In this document: positions 3,763 through 42,679 of the stretch, piece after piece | Numbering within the stretch: the stretch's first letter is position 1 | Layout: the number at the start of each line of letters is the position of its first letter | Position numbers and translations under genes: made by a program | Sequence record: OQ223306 | Length of the DNA: 50,597 bases | From: Shigella phage S2_02 | Reading direction: 5' to 3' (one strand) | Notes under the pieces: model-generated | Told to the model about the DNA's origin: nothing | The model's input: the letters and a program-made list of their open reading frames with translations, nothing else | Database searches by the model: none

Positions 3763-3807
3763 AATAGCACGAATTGCTAAACCTTCCGCAAGGCCATTTG
3801 ATATAGT
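3763..3807 (+). promoter_or_regulatory. Early promoter module: box AATAGCACGAATTGCTAAACC + 18 bp + TATAGT
   Basis: TATAGT 3802-3807 in hairpin AAGGCCA/TGGCCTT; predicted start about 3814 supports ATG 3848 as gene start. Confidence 0.5.
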
Positions 3808-3847: not shown

Positions 3848-4147
3848 ATGAAAATCAGATTAACCAGCAACTACTTTAACCGTGAATCTTTCAAACAATA
3901 CATAATCACAGACGGAATGAATCCTGGCATCATCCTTGATGTGTCCTACAACATTGGCGACGTTATGTTTGTATCAGCAACTGAGCTTGCAAAGTACGCA
4001 AAGCCAGAACATTGTCACCTGGCAGAGCCTCACTTGATCGATGGAAAGGTTACAGATTACGCATTCACCAAAGGTGAGTATGAAATCGTGAGATCTGGAC
4101 CTTTCAGCTTCTGGAACAAACTTAAATCAGGGGAGTTATTCAAATGA
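3848..4147 (+). CDS. hypothetical protein (99 aa)
   Basis: ORF-track frame (track start is GTG 3806); ATG 3848 has SD CAGAGGA and lies downstream of predicted start of module 3763-3807. Confidence 0.55.
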   Translation: MKIRLTSNYFNRESFKQYIITDGMNPGIILDVSYNIGDVMFVSATELAKYAKPEHCHLAEPHLIDGKVTDYAFTKGEYEIVRSGPFSFWNKLKSGELFK

Positions 4148-4431
4148 GCAAAACTCATAAGTTAAAAATTGCCCCGATACATTTCATTGGTGTAATGAAC
4201 GGAGCCAAAACGGCAGAGTTCCGCATCAATGACCGCAACTTCCAGGTTGGTGATATCCTTGAGCTACGCGAGTTCGATCGTGACGAGTTTACCGGGTGGG
4301 AAGTTCACGCCAGGGTGTCCGATGTTACAGACGTGACGCCATACATCAATCGCGGTTATGACGAGCAAGAATGCGACTTCACGCAATACGTGATGTTATC
4401 AATCAAGCCTTACAGGAAGGTTAGACCATGA
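4144..4431 (+). CDS. putative ASCH/PUA-like (DUF3850-like) domain protein (95 aa)
   Basis: ORF track; N-terminal pattern KLKIAPIHF...GAKTAEFRINDRNFQVGDILELRE recalls ASCH-type small phage proteins (from memory, unverified). Confidence 0.4.
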   Translation: MSKTHKLKIAPIHFIGVMNGAKTAEFRINDRNFQVGDILELREFDRDEFTGWEVHARVSDVTDVTPYINRGYDEQECDFTQYVMLSIKPYRKVRP

Positions 4432-5066
4432 AATTTGAGTGCGTATCAAGTAGCGGATCTGGTTTTAAGTGGGGAAAAACTTACAAAGGTGTTCGCGTAA
4501 ATGATGACAGCTTCATCATTACTGATGAGAACGATTGCAACGTGAACGTTGTACGGCGTCACGAATATCAGGAAATTTTCCTGCCTTATGGCGGTAGCTC
4601 AAAATATATCTTCCATCGAATCGTGGATGGTGTTAAATTTAAAGACGTAATCGAAGCAATCAACCAACTGCATAATAAAGAGGTCAAATTTATGAAATTC
4701 GAATGTATCAGTGATAACACCAAAAAATTTACCGTTGGCAAAATCTACGACGTGCCTACTGAGCACGCAAAGCACACTGTAGCACTGACCGACGACACGG
4801 GTCGCCACCGCATTGCAACCGTAACGCACAACTGTGAAGGTCTTCGCTGGAATAGCGGCGGAACTAAGTTCGCAACGTTCGGCAAGAAGCGCAAGCGTAC
4901 TTTCTGCGTTAATGGAAAGGTTACAGCGAACAAGATCCACAACGTCAAGCCGTCAGAAGTTGACCGTAAGCCAGCGACGAAGTTTGAAGAAAAGGCAGAT
5001 TTGTCTGGTCTGGCTATCGCTCTTGTTCTCCTGGTTGCTTCGATTTCGCTGCTATTCATCATGTAA
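4428..5066 (+). CDS. membrane-anchored protein with internally duplicated N-terminal domain (212 aa)
   Basis: ORF track; two segments each starting MKFEC(V/I)S; C-terminal hydrophobic helix LSGLAIALVLLVASISLLFIM. Confidence 0.6.
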   Translation: MKFECVSSSGSGFKWGKTYKGVRVNDDSFIITDENDCNVNVVRRHEYQEIFLPYGGSSKYIFHRIVDGVKFKDVIEAINQLHNKEVKFMKFECISDNTKKFTVGKIYDVPTEHAKHTVALTDDTGRHRIATVTHNCEGLRWNSGGTKFATFGKKRKRTFCVNGKVTANKIHNVKPSEVDRKPATKFEEKADLSGLAIALVLLVASISLLFIM

Positions 5067-5214: not shown

Positions 5215-5433
5215 ATGGCTACTATCATGACAGCAGAAGATGCAGCACGCGAAGCAGTGGAAGGAATGCGCCCAAATAGCTCCAGAATCGCCCACTACTA
5301 CAAATTTGAGGTGTCGGCAGTGCAATTGGTCCATGAAATTTTAAGGCTCCCACAAGTCGATTCAGCGCGCGTGGTGACGTGCTTAAAAAATTATTTTTGC
5401 ATCACTATTAAAACGAATAGCACGAATTGCTAA
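5215..5433 (+). CDS. hypothetical protein (72 aa)
   Basis: ORF track; weak SD; C-terminus NSTNC and stop are encoded by box 5416-5436; an alternative 36-codon hydrophobic ORF 5120-5230 has a better SD. Confidence 0.4.
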   Translation: MATIMTAEDAAREAVEGMRPNSSRIAHYYKFEVSAVQLVHEILRLPQVDSARVVTCLKNYFCITIKTNSTNC

Positions 5434-5460
5434 AACTTGCTCAAGGGCATTTGTTAGAAT
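5416..5460 (+). promoter_or_regulatory. Early promoter module: box AATAGCACGAATTGCTAAAAC + 18 bp + TGtTAGAAT
   Basis: -10-like TAGAAT 5455-5460 in hairpin AAGGGCAT/ATGCCCTT; gene at 5501. Confidence 0.5.
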
Positions 5461-5500
5461 GCCCTTCGTTGAGTTAAGCAACTAATCAGAGGAATAAATC

Positions 5501-6034
5501 ATGGATAAAATCACAATTTGGGGCCAGACAATCAACCTGTTTCTCGGCACTCGCCGCGTGGCAATCTTTGACTTCGACGGAACACTGAGTGACGGCTCAA
5601 AACGTCTTCACCTGCTACCGACGAAAGATTTGCACTTAACGGAAAGCTGGTCTGAGTTCAACCGCGCGGCAATATTTGACAATCCTATACGTAGTACGAT
5701 TGATGTGATGAACTCCATGTTTGCAGCTGGGTATCATGTGATCATTTTAACCGGGCGAAGCGATGAGGTGCGTTACGCATCTGAGTTATGGCTTAAGCAT
5801 CACGGCGCGCGATATGATTACTTAATCATGAGGCCGCATACCGACAACCGCAAAGACACGGTAATGAAAGAAGAGGCAGTGCGCGCTATCGGCATTGAGA
5901 ACATCCTGGCGGCTTGGGAAGACTCACCGCAAATTATTCCATTATTCCGGTCGCTTGGGATAACCACTTACGCTGTAGTTGACTATGGCGATAAAGTCCA
6001 CGATCATTTAAAATCTCACGGGGTAGAGAAATGA
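5501..6034 (+). CDS. HAD-superfamily phosphatase-like protein (177 aa)
   Basis: ORF track; N-terminal IFDFDGTLSD (DxDGT) motif and downstream ILTGR motif typical of HAD phosphatases. Confidence 0.65.
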   Translation: MDKITIWGQTINLFLGTRRVAIFDFDGTLSDGSKRLHLLPTKDLHLTESWSEFNRAAIFDNPIRSTIDVMNSMFAAGYHVIILTGRSDEVRYASELWLKHHGARYDYLIMRPHTDNRKDTVMKEEAVRAIGIENILAAWEDSPQIIPLFRSLGITTYAVVDYGDKVHDHLKSHGVEK

Positions 6035-6141
6035 ACCTATACGAATTTATTGCAGAACATCCGGTATTGACGGTTATCATCCTGCTAATCATCAATCACA
6101 CTATCATCAATGTAGCAAAATTATTTTTAGGGAGATACTGA
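6031..6141 (+). CDS. small hydrophobic peptide (36 aa)
   Basis: ATGA overlap with phosphatase stop; translation MNLYEFIAEHPVLTVIILLIINHTIINVAKLFLGRY; ends 1 nt before kinase ATG. Confidence 0.3.
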   Translation: MNLYEFIAEHPVLTVIILLIINHTIINVAKLFLGRY

Positions 6142-6142
6142 C

Positions 6143-6715
6143 ATGAAAACAGCTATCGTTTTAAACGGCGCGCCTGGAGCGGGAAAAGACACTATCGGAT
6201 GCATCCTGGCTGACACTTACGATCACGTAGCCTTGCGCAGCTTCAAAGCGCCAATGTTTGAGATTGCCCGGGCAATCCTGGGTGAAGCTAACTACGAGTA
6301 TTTCATGTTCTTGTATGAGGACCGTCGATATAAAGAAGAGCCAGCATCCATCCTGAACGGTAAAAGCCCACGCCAGTTTATGATCTGGATTAGCGAAGAA
6401 GTCATCAAGCCGCAGTTCGGAAATCGCTTCTTCGGTATGCGAGCGGAAAGCAAGGTGAAAGAGTCGCACTCCCTTTCGGTATTTACTGACGGTGGATTCA
6501 AAGATGAGATCTTGCAAATGATTGAAGGCGATATCCAAGTCAAGCTATGCCGCATACATCGCAACGGCTGCAACTTCGATAACGACAGTCGAGATTATAT
6601 CTACCTGGATAATATGATCGGTGTCAACGGTTATCAGGAATGTGACTTCTTCTCTGTCGAAGGTCATCCAGAAATTACCGCTCAGCACATAGCCGCCACG
6701 TTCATCAATAAATAG
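6143..6715 (+). CDS. P-loop nucleotide/nucleoside kinase-like protein (190 aa)
   Basis: ORF track; Walker A GAPGAGKDT at N-terminus; stop TAG inside box 6711-6731. Confidence 0.65.
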   Translation: MKTAIVLNGAPGAGKDTIGCILADTYDHVALRSFKAPMFEIARAILGEANYEYFMFLYEDRRYKEEPASILNGKSPRQFMIWISEEVIKPQFGNRFFGMRAESKVKESHSLSVFTDGGFKDEILQMIEGDIQVKLCRIHRNGCNFDNDSRDYIYLDNMIGVNGYQECDFFSVEGHPEITAQHIAATFINK

Positions 6716-6755
6716 CACGAATTGCTAAAACGTCGATGGGGTGATTTGATATAGT
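6711..6755 (+). promoter_or_regulatory. Early promoter module: box AATAGCACGAATTGCTAAAAC + 18 bp + TATAGT
   Basis: TATAGT 6750-6755; flanking 9-bp stem CGATGGGGT/ACCTCATCG has one G-T (G.U) pair; gene at 6788. Confidence 0.5.
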
Positions 6756-29330: not shown

Positions 29331-30292
29331 TACATGTTCGGAGTGAAAGGAATTGGCATTGAAATGTTTATATTGAAGGGGAATCGCGCTCCGCTTTGGG
29401 TGGAATAATTACCTACTCTTGTTCCTGGGGCGCTTCTAACGTTACCGCCGCTCATGCAAACGCCCTTGTATCGAATGTTATTATATCCACCTGTAACTCT
29501 GCATATCGTACCTGTTCTCAGTATTGGGAAAAATCCACCGCACCACTGCCAACCATCATTTATCGCCATAGTCCCGCCAAGAACGAAGGGGCGTCTAACG
29601 CTTGAGAAAACGATCTGGCCAGCAGGGTTACTCATAGTTATTCCCGGCCCAGGAGGTGGTGGGGTGTTATTAAATATTACGAGTTGAACGTATACGCTCG
29701 CGCCAACGTCATCAATCCCGTTATAGTTTGCATCCCTGCACCATATTGTATTGCCGTCAGATTCAAGTGTTACGTTTGGATTATCCCACATACCGAAAGG
29801 AACGCCCTGTACTGGCAACTGAGCCTGACCGTTAACCTGAATCCCCCCAACAAATGCAGCGCTCATCAATCTGGCGTTATTCGGTATCGCTGCGAAGTTC
29901 GTTGAATCGTTAACAAGTACCCCCTGATTTCCAGCTTGAGCGGGGAGGATTTCGTAGCAGTTTCCATAAAATCTCATCCTCCTTCCACCGTGCCCGTTAA
30001 AATTACCTACCGTTATTCGTCCGGTTGAATCATTGACCTTCTGAAAACTAGTCAAATAATACACCTCCGGGATGTAATCCATATCGTCTATGTAGATAGC
30101 CTGAGATGGAAGGCAAAAAGCGGTAGATCCTGGACTCATTTGCAGACCAAAATCAAAAACCGATCCAGATGAATCAACTCCGTCAGCCTGTATAGGTCCA
30201 CACCATGACGGGGCGCGAAGCCCTGAAGTTATCTCCATTGCCGGGCGACCGTCGTTTAGGTTTATATATATTCCTTGCCCCATAATTACCAC
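29327..30292 (-). CDS. hypothetical protein co-transcribed with cor-like gene; possible receptor-recognition / tail-fibre-associated protein (321 aa)
   Basis: ORF track; Gly/Asn/Ser-rich with PPPPGPG linker; start overlaps stop of cor-like gene; product assignment speculative. Confidence 0.45.
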   Translation of the reverse strand: MVIMGQGIYINLNDGRPAMEITSGLRAPSWCGPIQADGVDSSGSVFDFGLQMSPGSTAFCLPSQAIYIDDMDYIPEVYYLTSFQKVNDSTGRITVGNFNGHGGRRMRFYGNCYEILPAQAGNQGVLVNDSTNFAAIPNNARLMSAAFVGGIQVNGQAQLPVQGVPFGMWDNPNVTLESDGNTIWCRDANYNGIDDVGASVYVQLVIFNNTPPPPGPGITMSNPAGQIVFSSVRRPFVLGGTMAINDGWQWCGGFFPILRTGTICRVTGGYNNIRYKGVCMSGGNVRSAPGTRVGNYSTQSGARFPFNINISMPIPFTPNMY

Positions 30293-38765: not shown

Positions 38766-39241
38766 TTGAATGGTCAAAATACCTTAAGTACAACTACGGT
38801 AATCTTTACTGGCTCGTCACTAGAAATAATAGAGTTCAAGCTGGAACGCTTGCTGGAACTATAAGTGATGAGGGTTACGTGAAAGTCATGATGCGCAAGA
38901 AGGCGTATCATGCTCATAGAATAATATGGGAGATGCACTACGGAAAAATACCCGAAGGGATGGAAGTAGACCATATAAATCACGACAGGACTGACAACAG
39001 AATAGAAAACCTTCGTCTTGTCACTAAGCAAGTTAACATGAAAAATAAATCATCATATTCAAATAACAAATCTGGCGTTACTGGAGTAAGCTGGCACTCA
39101 AAGAAAAAGAAATGGGTAGCTCAGATACAAAGCAACAAGAGGAAAAAGATGTTATATGAAGGGGATAGCTTTGATGATGCAGTGAAGGCGAGAAAGTCAG
39201 CAGAGATAGAGCTTGATTTTCATAAAAATCACGGGGTGTAA
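38762..39241 (+). CDS. HNH endonuclease with AP2-like domain (159 aa)
   Basis: ORF track; HRIIWEMHYGKIPEGMEVDHINHDRTDNRIENL HNH core; paralog of 9130 and 49475 genes. Confidence 0.8.
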   Translation: MIEWSKYLKYNYGNLYWLVTRNNRVQAGTLAGTISDEGYVKVMMRKKAYHAHRIIWEMHYGKIPEGMEVDHINHDRTDNRIENLRLVTKQVNMKNKSSYSNNKSGVTGVSWHSKKKKWVAQIQSNKRKKMLYEGDSFDDAVKARKSAEIELDFHKNHGV

Positions 39242-39242
39242 A

Positions 39243-39662
39243 ATGGCTGTACTAGATAAGGGTGATTATTTAGAATATTATGAACGAGATCCCAGCGATA
39301 CTCGAAAGGAGGTTGCTCATCAGATTGATAGCTTCCAGTGGCTAAAGCACAATCATCCGGAATTGCTTGCTTGGCATAGCGTTAATGAAAATAAGAAGAC
39401 AAAAGTTACCGCGATGATTGACCAGCAGTCAGGATTACTTAAGGGCGTATCAGACTTCGTTATCCTGATTGGTGTAAACTCACGTTACCCGTTCGCAGCT
39501 ATCGAACTCAAACGGGTTAATAAGTCCGGCAAAGGAAAAGCGTCACCAGTCAGCGATAAGCAAATTGAGTTTCTCAAAAAGGTTCGTGAACGCGGTGGAT
39601 TCTCTGCCGTTGCATACGGATTTGAGCAATTCAAGCTGGCAATATGCGATTTAACTAAATAG
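39243..39662 (+). CDS. putative VRR-NUC / PD-(D/E)XK nuclease (139 aa)
   Basis: ORF-track frame 39213..39662; ATG 39243 follows upstream stop; GVSDFVIL ... AIELKRVN resembles D...E.K nuclease motif. Confidence 0.5.
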   Translation: MAVLDKGDYLEYYERDPSDTRKEVAHQIDSFQWLKHNHPELLAWHSVNENKKTKVTAMIDQQSGLLKGVSDFVILIGVNSRYPFAAIELKRVNKSGKGKASPVSDKQIEFLKKVRERGGFSAVAYGFEQFKLAICDLTK

Positions 39663-41527: not shown

Positions 41528-42679
41528 ATGTCACAAGCTAAAATCACCACCGAGCAACTTATTGAAGAGCGCATGAGCGGCCTAACACTTCGCGAAATCG
41601 CGGAAAAATACGGTATGCACATTCGCACTGTTGAAGCGCGACATGCCAAGCTGGCAAAAGAAGGTCATTTTCACGGTAACGAGCATGTTGCTAAAAACGT
41701 GCCCGAGGGATTCATGGTAAAAGGCACGTCGACGATGATTCGCGGCGATGGGACCGAGGTAGTGCGCTGGGTAAAAACCGATCAGGACCGTGAGAAGATT
41801 GCGGCAATGATGGAAGCAGCGCGTATTGCATTCTGTGAAGACCTGCCGAGAGCGAAGCCAACCGAGCTACTAACCTCGCAAGGGCTTACGACAGCGATGG
41901 GTAAGCTGGCACTCTATCCGGTATTCGATCTTCATATTGGCGCGCTTGCTCACAAGCATGAATGCGGAGAGAACTACTCTACCGACGTAGCTGAAAAAGT
42001 GCTTGGCGACTTCTTCAATTACGCGATCGATATTGCCCCGAACGCAGAGAAAGCTGTTCTGTTAATCGGCGGTGACTTCCTTCACTCGGACGGTCTTGAT
42101 GCTGTTACCCCGGCAAGCGGTCACGTTCTGGATCAGGATTCACGATATGCAAAATTGGTGCATGTGGCTATTCGATCGGTGCGTCGCGCTATCGACAAAA
42201 TGCTACTGAAGCACAAAGAAGTCGAAGTCCAGGTTATCGAAGGGAACCACGACCAGGCCGGGATGATTTGGCTACGCGCTGCAATGGCTGCATACTATGA
42301 AGACGAGCCGCGAGTATTCGTTGACGTCAGTCCTATGATTCTGCATAAGACTCGCTGGGGAAATACCTTACTGGGATACACTCACGGTCACACGATGAAA
42401 AAGGCAGACACGCGACTTGCAGCGATGGCGGCAGACTTCCGCGCAGACTTTGGAGAAAGCAAATACGTGTATACTCACAGTGGGCACTGGCATCATCAGA
42501 CAATCACTGAACACTCACTCGGTATTGATGAAGTTCACGGTCAGCTTGGGGCGAAAGACGCATATGCGGCGCGCGGCGGGTGGCGCTCATATCGCCAGGC
42601 GGCGGTAATCATTTACGATAAGCAGTTTGGTGAAATCGGTCGATTCATCTATCGTCCAGAAATGACAGGATCGCACTAA
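41528..42679 (+). CDS. calcineurin-like metallophosphoesterase with N-terminal HTH-like domain (383 aa)
   Basis: ORF track; motifs DLHIG, GGDFLHSDG, GNHD, GHTM, HSGHWHH; N-terminal LTLREIAEKYGMHIRTV HTH-like segment. Confidence 0.65.
   Translation: MSQAKITTEQLIEERMSGLTLREIAEKYGMHIRTVEARHAKLAKEGHFHGNEHVAKNVPEGFMVKGTSTMIRGDGTEVVRWVKTDQDREKIAAMMEAARIAFCEDLPRAKPTELLTSQGLTTAMGKLALYPVFDLHIGALAHKHECGENYSTDVAEKVLGDFFNYAIDIAPNAEKAVLLIGGDFLHSDGLDAVTPASGHVLDQDSRYAKLVHVAIRSVRRAIDKMLLKHKEVEVQVIEGNHDQAGMIWLRAAMAAYYEDEPRVFVDVSPMILHKTRWGNTLLGYTHGHTMKKADTRLAAMAADFRADFGESKYVYTHSGHWHHQTITEHSLGIDEVHGQLGAKDAYAARGGWRSYRQAAVIIYDKQFGEIGRFIYRPEMTGSH

Follow-up and report, generated by a model that had tools for sequence, protein, structure and literature searches.

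Two small, coupled early genes of a T1-like phage encode a stand-alone homologue of the 3'-phosphatase domain of polynucleotide kinase/phosphatase (Pnkp) and a predicted kinase of the T4 gp1 deoxynucleotide kinase superfamily. With moderate confidence, we read the pair as a nucleotide-salvage module that would recycle host DNA and thereby serve deoxynucleotide supply. Both proteins belong to known families and keep their catalytic residues; their genes are coupled, are fused in some phages, and recur in the company of nucleotide metabolism and nuclease genes. The window, that is, the whole stretch of 50,597 nucleotides that was analyzed (Shigella phage S2_02, record OQ223306), is a complete Tunavirus (phage T1-like, Drexlerviridae) genome that is collinear throughout with phage EF3-1, and the locus shows 93-97% DNA identity to 64 Tunavirus records. 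The open reading frame (ORF) listing and direct reading of the sequence place three tightly packed genes on the + strand of positions 5501-6715, in the order HAD phosphatase, micro-ORF, and P-loop kinase (Table 1). This confirms an earlier note on this DNA, which had described a DxDGT-type HAD gene, a 36-codon hydrophobic micro-ORF, and a GAPGAGKDT kinase gene as separate, adjacent genes. Judging from the matches of the HAD to PF25109 and phrog_415 and of the kinase to phrog_139, their many homologues, and the conservation of the DNA, the three predicted ORFs are real genes rather than chance ORFs. One kilobase upstream, at 4144-4431, lies a gene for a PUA-like DUF3850 protein.

Table 1. Features of the phosphatase-kinase locus (positions in the window)
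Feature	Coordinates	Strand	Remarks
Conserved 20-mer ATAGCACGAATTGCTAAAAC	5417..5436	+	Upstream of the operon
8-bp hairpin AAGGGCAT/ATGCCCTT	5443..5466	+	Encloses extended -10-like TGTTAGAAT (5452-5460); sequence reading
Shine-Dalgarno-like AGAGGA	5488..5493	+	7 nt 5' of the HAD start codon; sequence reading
Predicted stand-alone HAD phosphatase, Pnkp 3'-phosphatase clade, 177 aa	5501..6034	+	DFDGT = residues 24-28
Hydrophobic micro-ORF, 36 aa, MNLYEFIAEHPVLTVIILLIINHTIINVAKLFLGRY	6031..6141	+	ATG overlaps the HAD stop as ATGA
Predicted P-loop kinase, T4 gp1 deoxynucleoside-monophosphate kinase superfamily, 190 aa	6143..6715	+	GAPGAGKDT = residues 9-17
Second 20-mer copy (6712-6731), then extended -10-like TGATATAGT (6747-6755)	6712..6755	+	

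The three genes look like a single small early transcription unit with translational coupling, since they are bracketed by copies of the 20-mer (at 5417 and 6712) and by -10-like sites and are joined by overlapping or abutting stop and start codons, the kinase starting 1 nt past the stop of the micro-ORF. A DNA search with the 20-mer gave 8 matches against 0 expected; on the + strand, the early region has four copies that are exact or nearly so. The alignment of these four copies, which is the one basis for a promoter-like reading of the repeat, places an extended -10-like TGnTAnAnT at a fixed offset after each copy and retains AGAGGA in three of the four. A simple scan for sigma-70 promoters and terminators found nothing above the shuffled expectation and called neither the hairpin nor its -10-like site; in the relative SA32RD, a terminator is annotated at this hairpin. 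The hairpin is probably the upstream transcription boundary of the unit, by way of a promoter and/or the hairpin itself, and the element that begins within the last codons of the kinase gene is predicted to close the unit on its downstream side and to open the one that follows. The micro-ORF peptide, which is present in 14 of the 19 related Drexlerviridae loci examined and missing from T1 and four others, matched no family in Pfam and PHROG profile searches; possible roles are those of a small membrane peptide or of a mere spacer for translational coupling.

The HAD protein is a stand-alone homologue of the Pnkp 3'-phosphatase domain and a predicted enzyme. It matches the Pfam family HAD_PNKP (PF25109) at 57.9 bits (cut-off, 27.6; profile positions 3-138 of 143) and phrog_415 at 1.6e-65, the latter being the family that the phosphatase domain of T4 Pnkp matches at 3e-24, and it has 442 homologues in the database. 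A PDB sequence search recovered Pnkp1 of the Capnocytophaga RNA repair complex together with the T4 Pnkp phosphatase domain, and structure comparison likewise places its fold nearest the Pnkp phosphatase domains. When aligned by hhalign with residues 151-298 of T4 Pnkp (probability, 97.4%), D24-F-D26-G-T28 falls on T4 D165-V-D167-G-T169, and the residue map continues with R35=R176, D60=D187, T84=S211, R86=R213, R111=R246, D119=D254, K123=K258, E140=D277, and D141=D278. Across 39 homologues, D24 and D26 never vary and at least 90% retain T28, and R35, D60, R86, and D119 are invariant in the family alignment. At position 140, at least 90% of the homologues have Asp, and the window protein has Glu. 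In T4 Pnkp, D165 is the nucleophile and D167 the acid/base, S211 and K258 attend to the phosphate, and D278 to Mg (PMC3592404). By this mapping, the HAD would use the same aspartyl-phosphate chemistry as the T4 phosphatase, with D24 as the nucleophile and D26 as the acid/base, the phosphate being held by T84 and K123 and Mg2+ being bound by D141 (with E140). T4 D277 forms, with D278, the Mg-binding acidic pair of the Pnkp phosphatase. Mutagenesis in the Shuman laboratory reportedly found T4 R176, D187, R213, and D254 to be essential, and the T4 enzyme is said to tolerate Thr at 211 and Glu at 277 (a result attributed to Zhu et al., 2007).

Beyond the catalytic core, T1-type HADs depart from T4 Pnkp in several respects. 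R111 is conserved, and its T4 counterpart R246 has been proposed to bind, as a pair with R279, the penultimate phosphodiester of a polynucleotide; R279 is the only mapped T4 residue that is lost, an invariant Ser (S142) standing in its place in T1-type HADs. These proteins also carry a strongly conserved insert of about 16 residues after motif I (HRLxLLP...ESWxEFNxA), which is not found in T4 Pnkp. Other Tunavirus genomes have an in-frame 78-bp extension of the HAD gene encoding VCNHEPSEPLPPFGDKICIKCKELLK, a 26-aa Cys/His, zinc-knuckle-like tail, and different CxxC-containing tails are seen in other lineages; the window HAD is the short form without this tail, as is that of T1 (P0090, 176 aa). 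In the GenBank records of relatives, the first gene is named "polynucleotide kinase/phosphatase" and the third often "deoxynucleoside monophosphate kinase". Since the HAD protein lacks any kinase domain, the name "polynucleotide kinase" for its gene is a misnomer: what it is predicted to encode is the phosphatase half only.

The kinase, judged by profile and structure comparison, is a homologue of the T4 gp1-type deoxynucleotide kinase and not of the T4 Pnk-type 5'-kinase. It matches phrog_139 at 7.6e-46 (profile positions 82-260), as T4 gp1 does at 1.8e-65 (positions 83-261), whereas T4 Pnkp matches phrog_505 and not phrog_139. An hhalign comparison of the kinase family with the gp1 family (probability, 97.7%; E, 1.5e-12; 176 columns) aligned the GKDT loops and paired R77, D116, E122, and R140 with gp1 R132, D175, E181, and R197. 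In the P-loop (G9-APGAG-K15-D16-T17), G14, K15, and D16 are invariant and T17 is nearly so, and these residues align with gp1 G13-K14-D15-T16. In contrast, T4 Pnkp could be aligned over just 25 columns, those of the P-loop, and this alignment shows no similarity in the kinase to the Pnk acceptor-site residues beyond it. PDB sequence searches with the kinase returned P-loops only; by structure comparison its fold is nearest to gp1, and far nearer to gp1 than to any polynucleotide kinase, and its viral structural neighbors carry the dNMP kinase annotation.

A Pfam search with the kinase gave nothing above noise, with no match to DNMK (PF21448) even at E values up to 1, and a precomputed Pfam domain is present in none of its 83 database homologues, whereas PF21448 is recorded on all gp1 homologues. 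Given these two absences, the kinase is best described as belonging to a putative sister family of Pfam DNMK, inside the gp1 superfamily and outside the Pfam family as drawn. An exhaustive search brought this family to 4768 cluster representatives at E values up to 1e-3. Several residues that are invariant in gp1 differ here, with R177 and T140 replaced by G118 and E85, respectively, and H206 having no aligned counterpart; hence, the specificity of the kinase could differ from that of gp1. In a published tree, PP_1964 of Pseudomonas putida, the source of the thymidylate kinase activity on which that bacterium depends, clusters with the dNMP kinases of T4 and T5 (PMC10653934).

The two genes travel together well beyond the window. 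In about 72 of the 80 IMG/VR contigs with the kinase, mostly Drexlerviridae, the HAD gene lies upstream on the same strand at a distance of 0-2.7 kb, and an adjacent, overlapping HAD-kinase pair is also found in Aeromonas phage LAh2 (Autographiviridae). Among the cluster representatives, P0219 (403 aa) and P0240 (461 aa) are single-polypeptide fusions with the HAD N-terminal and the kinase C-terminal, in which both active sites are intact and a conserved linker is common to the two. Translational coupling, conserved synteny, recurrence in unrelated phages, and natural fusions thus support a predicted functional link between the HAD and the kinase, and they bear out the suggestion of the earlier note that the two activities work together. 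In phage EF2-1, the pair forms a three-gene operon in which it follows a metallophosphoesterase annotated as a "DNA repair exonuclease" (phrog_704), and P0219 is found on three contigs, of which the longest is a 60-kb phage contig with a phrog_704 gene directly after the fusion; in EF2-1 and L090 alike, a phrog_704 gene lies next to the pair or to the fusion. We considered the metallophosphoesterase-HAD-kinase triad as an RNA-repair cassette comparable to Clostridium thermocellum Pnkp and rejected it, the Metallophos matches being weak and no ligase module being found.

Where the two genes occur apart, their neighborhoods are informative. We sampled kinase diversity through the contigs that encode cluster representatives; single distant kinases used as queries gave close relatives only. 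The kinase without the HAD lies near thymidylate synthase in a Vequintavirus, beside an exonuclease and fused to an extra N-terminal domain in a Kuravirus, and among the DNA-metabolism genes of T7-like and T4-like contigs. The HAD without the kinase follows a 5'-3' exonuclease and endonuclease VII in Drulisvirus, two genes that, by analogy with T7, we take to break down host DNA for reuse. In the T4-like phage RB49, a T1-type HAD with the diagnostic insert stands last in the order nrdA-nrdB-HAD, its start overlapping the nrdB stop, and the same genome keeps a complete pseT and RNA ligase 1 (rnlA) a few kilobases away. That RB49 combines this HAD with its own pseT and rnlA indicates that the T1-type HAD is no substitute for Pnkp. 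The earlier note had recognized no ligase nearby, and this holds for the whole phage: none was found among the 17 window ORFs of at least 250 aa or in the annotation of the collinear EF3-1, which is PHROG- and structure-based. All 17 have counterparts among the structural, packaging, recombination, or replication genes of EF3-1, having been placed by collinearity, with the packaging and head ORFs assigned by matching their interval to the terminase-to-head genes of that phage. The nrdAB, nuclease, and thymidylate synthase neighbors, the lack of a ligase, and the separate pseT and rnlA of RB49 together point to deoxynucleotide metabolism as the likely setting, in preference to RNA or DNA end repair.

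In the salvage role that we favor, the kinase would act as a broad-use deoxynucleoside-monophosphate kinase (dNMP + ATP -> dNDP), speeding the passage of dNMPs from the degraded host chromosome to phage DNA precursors. The HAD, for its part, would most likely strip 3'-phosphates from deoxynucleotides or from fragments of DNA breakdown, and the dephosphorylated material could then be degraded further by exonucleases to feed the 5'-dNMP pool that the kinase would use. What we infer here comprises the substrates, which of the two reactions comes first, and the connection with the recycling of host DNA. Consistent with such a role, the phosphatase of T4 Pnkp hydrolyzes 3'-dTMP at 24 per second, in addition to 3'-phosphorylated oligonucleotides (PMC3592404), and T1 and TLS break down the DNA of the host and reuse its nucleotides by means of genes still to be identified (PMC11447400). 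The authors of the KanT1 paper remark that in many Drexlerviridae both genes come after the "DNA repair exonuclease" and propose that they enhance nucleotide supply (PMC13164509). Certain features fit less easily. The zinc-knuckle-like HAD tails predicted in some relatives fit a nucleic-acid substrate better than a mononucleotide. Further, T1 infection has no known source of 3'-dNMPs or of DNA with 3'-phosphates, and the common nucleases of E. coli and phages leave 3'-OH ends; thus, salvage by itself does not explain why a 3'-phosphatase would be needed. The fusion of a kinase to a phosphatase is, moreover, a hallmark of end-healing enzymes.

The tails and the fusion lend some appeal to a noncanonical form of end-healing, in which the HAD would remove 3'-phosphates, the gp1-like kinase would phosphorylate the 5'-OH of nicked DNA or cleaved RNA, and a host ligase would seal the ends; on balance, we regard this as unlikely. 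Among stand-alone proteins, the HAD is the nearest relative of the Pnkp phosphatase domains in enzymes proven to repair RNA, and it has kept the counterpart of T4 R246, the optional tails suggest nucleic-acid binding, and the coupling or fusion of the two activities resembles the arrangement in T4 and mammalian PNKP. However, the counterpart of R279 is an invariant Ser, the kinase aligns with T4 Pnk at the P-loop only and is structurally far nearer gp1, and it is found alone in contexts of nucleotide metabolism. The phage lacks a ligase, and to our knowledge E. coli lacks an RNA ligase that would join 3'-OH/5'-P ends. In RB49, the HAD sits behind nrdB in addition to a complete pseT and rnlA set. 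The more specific proposal of the earlier note, that the pair heals ends produced by host anticodon nucleases, finds no support in much the same observations, namely, the lack of a ligase, the lack of similarity to the Pnk acceptor site, and the RB49 HAD located beside nrdAB in a phage that also has pseT and rnlA.

Another idea, which is more speculative and which we hold to be decidedly unlikely, is that the HAD and the gp1-like kinase, which are separate in the window but joined in P0219 and P0240, constitute an undescribed class of bifunctional phosphatase-kinases. Such a class would combine a Pnkp-type phosphatase with a kinase of the dNMP kinase type and would perform neither classical end-healing nor plain dNMP phosphorylation. 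One possibility for its chemistry is that deoxynucleotides would have their phosphate shifted from the 3' position to the 5' position (Np -> pNp -> pN -> ppN), by which 3'-phosphorylated breakdown products would be reused; another is the destruction of nucleotides, either signals or modified forms such as m6-dAMP, that host defenses sense during chromosome degradation.

A related scheme, which we find very unlikely, would have the pair sanitize the nucleotide pool or act in counter-defense, the HAD being a nucleotidase that singles out undesirable mononucleotides released from the host's DNA or RNA, for instance dUMP, ribonucleotides, or methylated dNMPs such as m6-dAMP, while the kinase pushes canonical dNMPs onward. 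Inserts at the cap position of HAD enzymes usually shape specificity for small molecules, and the conserved insert of about 16 residues after motif I, absent from T4 Pnkp, occupies that position; the HAD also reaches the model of the class B acid phosphatases, a nucleotidase family, at 28.6 bits (cut-off, 27). Moreover, m6-dAMP released by phage-induced breakdown of host DNA triggers the PUA-Cal-HAD defense (PMC12871103), and the PUA-like DUF3850 gene upstream of the locus would accord with an involvement in that conflict. On the other hand, the insert in the HAD was modeled at low confidence, and, unless very selective, a 5'-nucleotidase that is fused to a dNMP kinase would be in competition with that kinase for substrate. 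Finally, that the two proteins have unrelated roles and are adjacent through the packing of small early genes is highly improbable: the HAD does occur alone in Drulisvirus and RB49 and the kinase alone in Kuravirus, Vequintavirus, and T7-like contigs, and up to 2.7 kb of other genes separate the two in many Drexlerviridae, but they are translationally coupled in the window, keep the same gene order in at least three unrelated phage groups, and are naturally fused in two distinct protein clusters.

The earlier note had weighed a split polynucleotide kinase/phosphatase against a dNMP kinase with a nucleotidase, and the outcome takes a half from each: the phosphatase is of the Pnkp type and the kinase of the dNMP kinase type, whereas a Pnk-type kinase and an unrelated nucleotidase both drop out. 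The homology search proposed in that note likewise returned clear dNMP kinase homology for the kinase and a Pnkp-type phosphatase in place of the unrelated nucleotidase that would have spoken against end-healing. Public databases already contain the genes, their adjacent arrangement, and their labels, and the copies in the window are near-identical to those deposited. The TLS paper labels the pair polynucleotide kinase and dNMP kinase (PMC11447400), and the KanT1 paper mentions it (PMC13164509), in both cases without experiments. Absent from the literature that we searched are the points that the "PNK" is phosphatase only, that its partner kinase is of the gp1 type, and that the two are fused in some phages. 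Thus, this work is a refinement of annotation joined to a testable hypothesis and does not describe a new kind of system; the pair consists of early genes that are ordinary and widely conserved among T1-like phages. The neighboring kinase does not supply the missing Pnk half but is predicted to be a gp1-type nucleotide kinase. If the pair belongs to the recycling of the host chromosome, it offers a testable entry to a process whose genes are still unidentified (PMC11447400), and it may also bear on defenses that sense or starve nucleotide pools.

Among known systems, the closest to the HAD are the phosphatase domain of T4 Pnkp (pseT; PDB 1LTQ and 5UJ0) and Capnocytophaga Pnkp1 (4XRP). Unlike these, the window HAD is a separate 177-aa protein that is not fused to a Pnk-type kinase and has no associated RNA ligase, and it is further set apart by the conserved insert of about 16 aa after motif I, an N-terminal beta-hairpin, and the Ser in place of T4 R279. 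The fusions of relatives reverse the domain order of the end-healing enzyme encoded by T4 pseT, placing the phosphatase first, and their kinase is of the gp1 type. Mammalian PNKP (FHA-phosphatase-kinase), an enzyme that heals DNA ends, does have the phosphatase before the kinase, as do P0219 and P0240, but its kinase domain is Pnk-type rather than gp1-type. Compared with T4 gp1 (PDB 1DEK; PF21448), the window kinase has about 12% identity, scores below the Pfam threshold, and is minimal, with 190 aa against 241 aa and without the insertion of about 50 residues in gp1; it has invariant residues of its own (N8, K35, Y58, S84-E85, K89, DGGF, and DSR). T5 Dnk and T7 gp1.7, the latter without a P-loop, resemble the proposed role in being accessory dNMP kinases that enhance nucleotide salvage from the host in phages that recycle host DNA. 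A published tree places T5 Dnk and T4 gp1 in one dNMPK group (PMC10653934). The T5 dnk gene is not annotated in the 40-86 kb region of NC_005859. T5 also offers a parallel to the phosphatase in its Dmp 5'-deoxyribonucleotidase, a phage phosphatase of the HAD superfamily that acts on the breakdown products of host DNA. However, Dmp belongs to a different HAD family, with no match to it in the Pfam, PHROG, and PDB searches with the window HAD, and the two strategies diverge in their outcome: T5 discards the nucleotides of its host, whereas T1-like phages reuse them.

The HAD phosphatase and the dNMP kinase homologue, separate genes in the window, are joined in a single polypeptide elsewhere: two fusions, P0219 and P0240 (see table), share a conserved linker of ~60-100 aa between their phosphatase and kinase parts. 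On the 60-kb phage contig that encodes one of these fusions, the next gene directly after it codes for a metallophosphoesterase of the phrog_704 ("DNA repair exonuclease") family. More generally, phrog_704 genes adjoin either the pair or the fusion in other phages, and in the window itself the phrog_704 gene lies ~35 kb downstream of the pair. Its product has no PDB match by sequence, and its relatives yield weak matches to calcineurin-like metallophosphoesterases, with nothing stronger.

Coordinates of the features discussed (window positions unless another locus is named)
Feature	Location	Strand	Details
20-mer ATAGCACGAATTGCTAAAAC	2137-2156, 3764-3783, 5417-5436, 6712-6731	+	sequence search of window
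Weaker copies of ATAGCACGAATTGCTAAAAC	35123, 40682	+	sequence search of window
Weaker copies of ATAGCACGAATTGCTAAAAC	47313, 49042	-	sequence search of window
DUF3850 protein	4144-4431	+	95 aa; PF12961, 2.9e-16
ORF after DUF3850 gene	4428-5066	+	212 aa
HAD tail deletion point	6028-6030
Micro-ORF	6031-6141	+	36 aa
Stretch around membrane-protein gene	29343-30204
Stretch between helicase and VRR-NUC genes	38768-39253
phrog_704 protein	41528-42679	+	383 aa
HAD tail segment	L002 3733-3810; L003 2750-2830		Tunavirus genomes
HNH-like gene, phage T1	L011 4504-4998		164 aa
RB49p229	L093 (phage RB49) 3998-4474		stand-alone T1-type HAD
Kuravirus kinase version	L005 (phage SU10) 2689-3582		297 aa
Fusion P0219	L090 8001-9212		403 aa; T1-type HAD N-terminal, gp1-type kinase C-terminal
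Fusion P0240	L092 498-1883		461 aa; T1-type HAD N-terminal, gp1-type kinase C-terminal

Each partner also occurs in variant forms. RB49p229, labeled "polynucleotide kinase" in the database, has DLDFT as its motif I versus the usual DxDGT. Its gene begins at the very end of nrdB, start and stop overlapping, and the same genome also encodes pseT and rnlA. The SU10 kinase carries an additional N-terminal domain of ~100 aa with a PHROG of its own (26149, likewise labeled dNMP kinase), and its gene is overlapped by an exonuclease gene.

Within Tunavirus, the end of the HAD gene is polymorphic for the presence of an in-frame 78-bp segment encoding a 26-aa Cys/His tail (C-x2-H ... C-x2-C), which is absent from the window and from T1. 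At the same site, other Drexlerviridae bear unrelated CxxC...CxxC tails or an extension of ~60 aa. This combination of presence-absence polymorphism and unrelated tails at one site suggests, from sequence, that the variable tail is an optional zinc-binding appendage, possibly for nucleic acid. The hydrophobic micro-ORF that follows is retained independently of this tail, being seen both with and without it, and encodes a near-identical peptide in 14 of the 19 related Drexlerviridae loci examined. In T1 and two other loci, it is replaced by a gene resembling HNH homing endonucleases, and there the HAD C-terminus is remodeled. Two further stretches of the window, at 29343 and 38768, have no equivalent in the collinear relative EF3-1 and may represent small accessory or homing-endonuclease insertions.

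In the early region ATAGCACGAATTGCTAAAAC recurs at intergenic sites, whereas 0 copies would be expected by chance in the window search. Every early-region copy is followed, ~15 nt 3', by an extended -10-like TGnTAnAnT that lies inside a hairpin; at three of these four sites AACCAATCAGAGGAAT comes next, ahead of the following gene. Judged by these motifs, the repeats have the appearance of a conserved element family, serving as early promoters or in regulation; in one relative they carry a terminator annotation.

Upstream of the HAD gene, the 212-aa ORF is evidently duplicated internally (MKFECVSSSGSGFKWGKTYKG... and MKFECISDNTKKFTVGKIYDV...), its C-terminal segment is hydrophobic, and Pfam gives no match for it. 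Two genes 5' of the HAD gene is that for the DUF3850 protein, which one relative annotates as an ASCH/"activating signal cointegrator" (PUA-like) domain. PUA and ASCH domains have modified nucleotides as ligands. A host PUA-Cal-HAD defense senses m6-dAMP (PMC12871103); a connection between it and the phage DUF3850 gene would be pure speculation.
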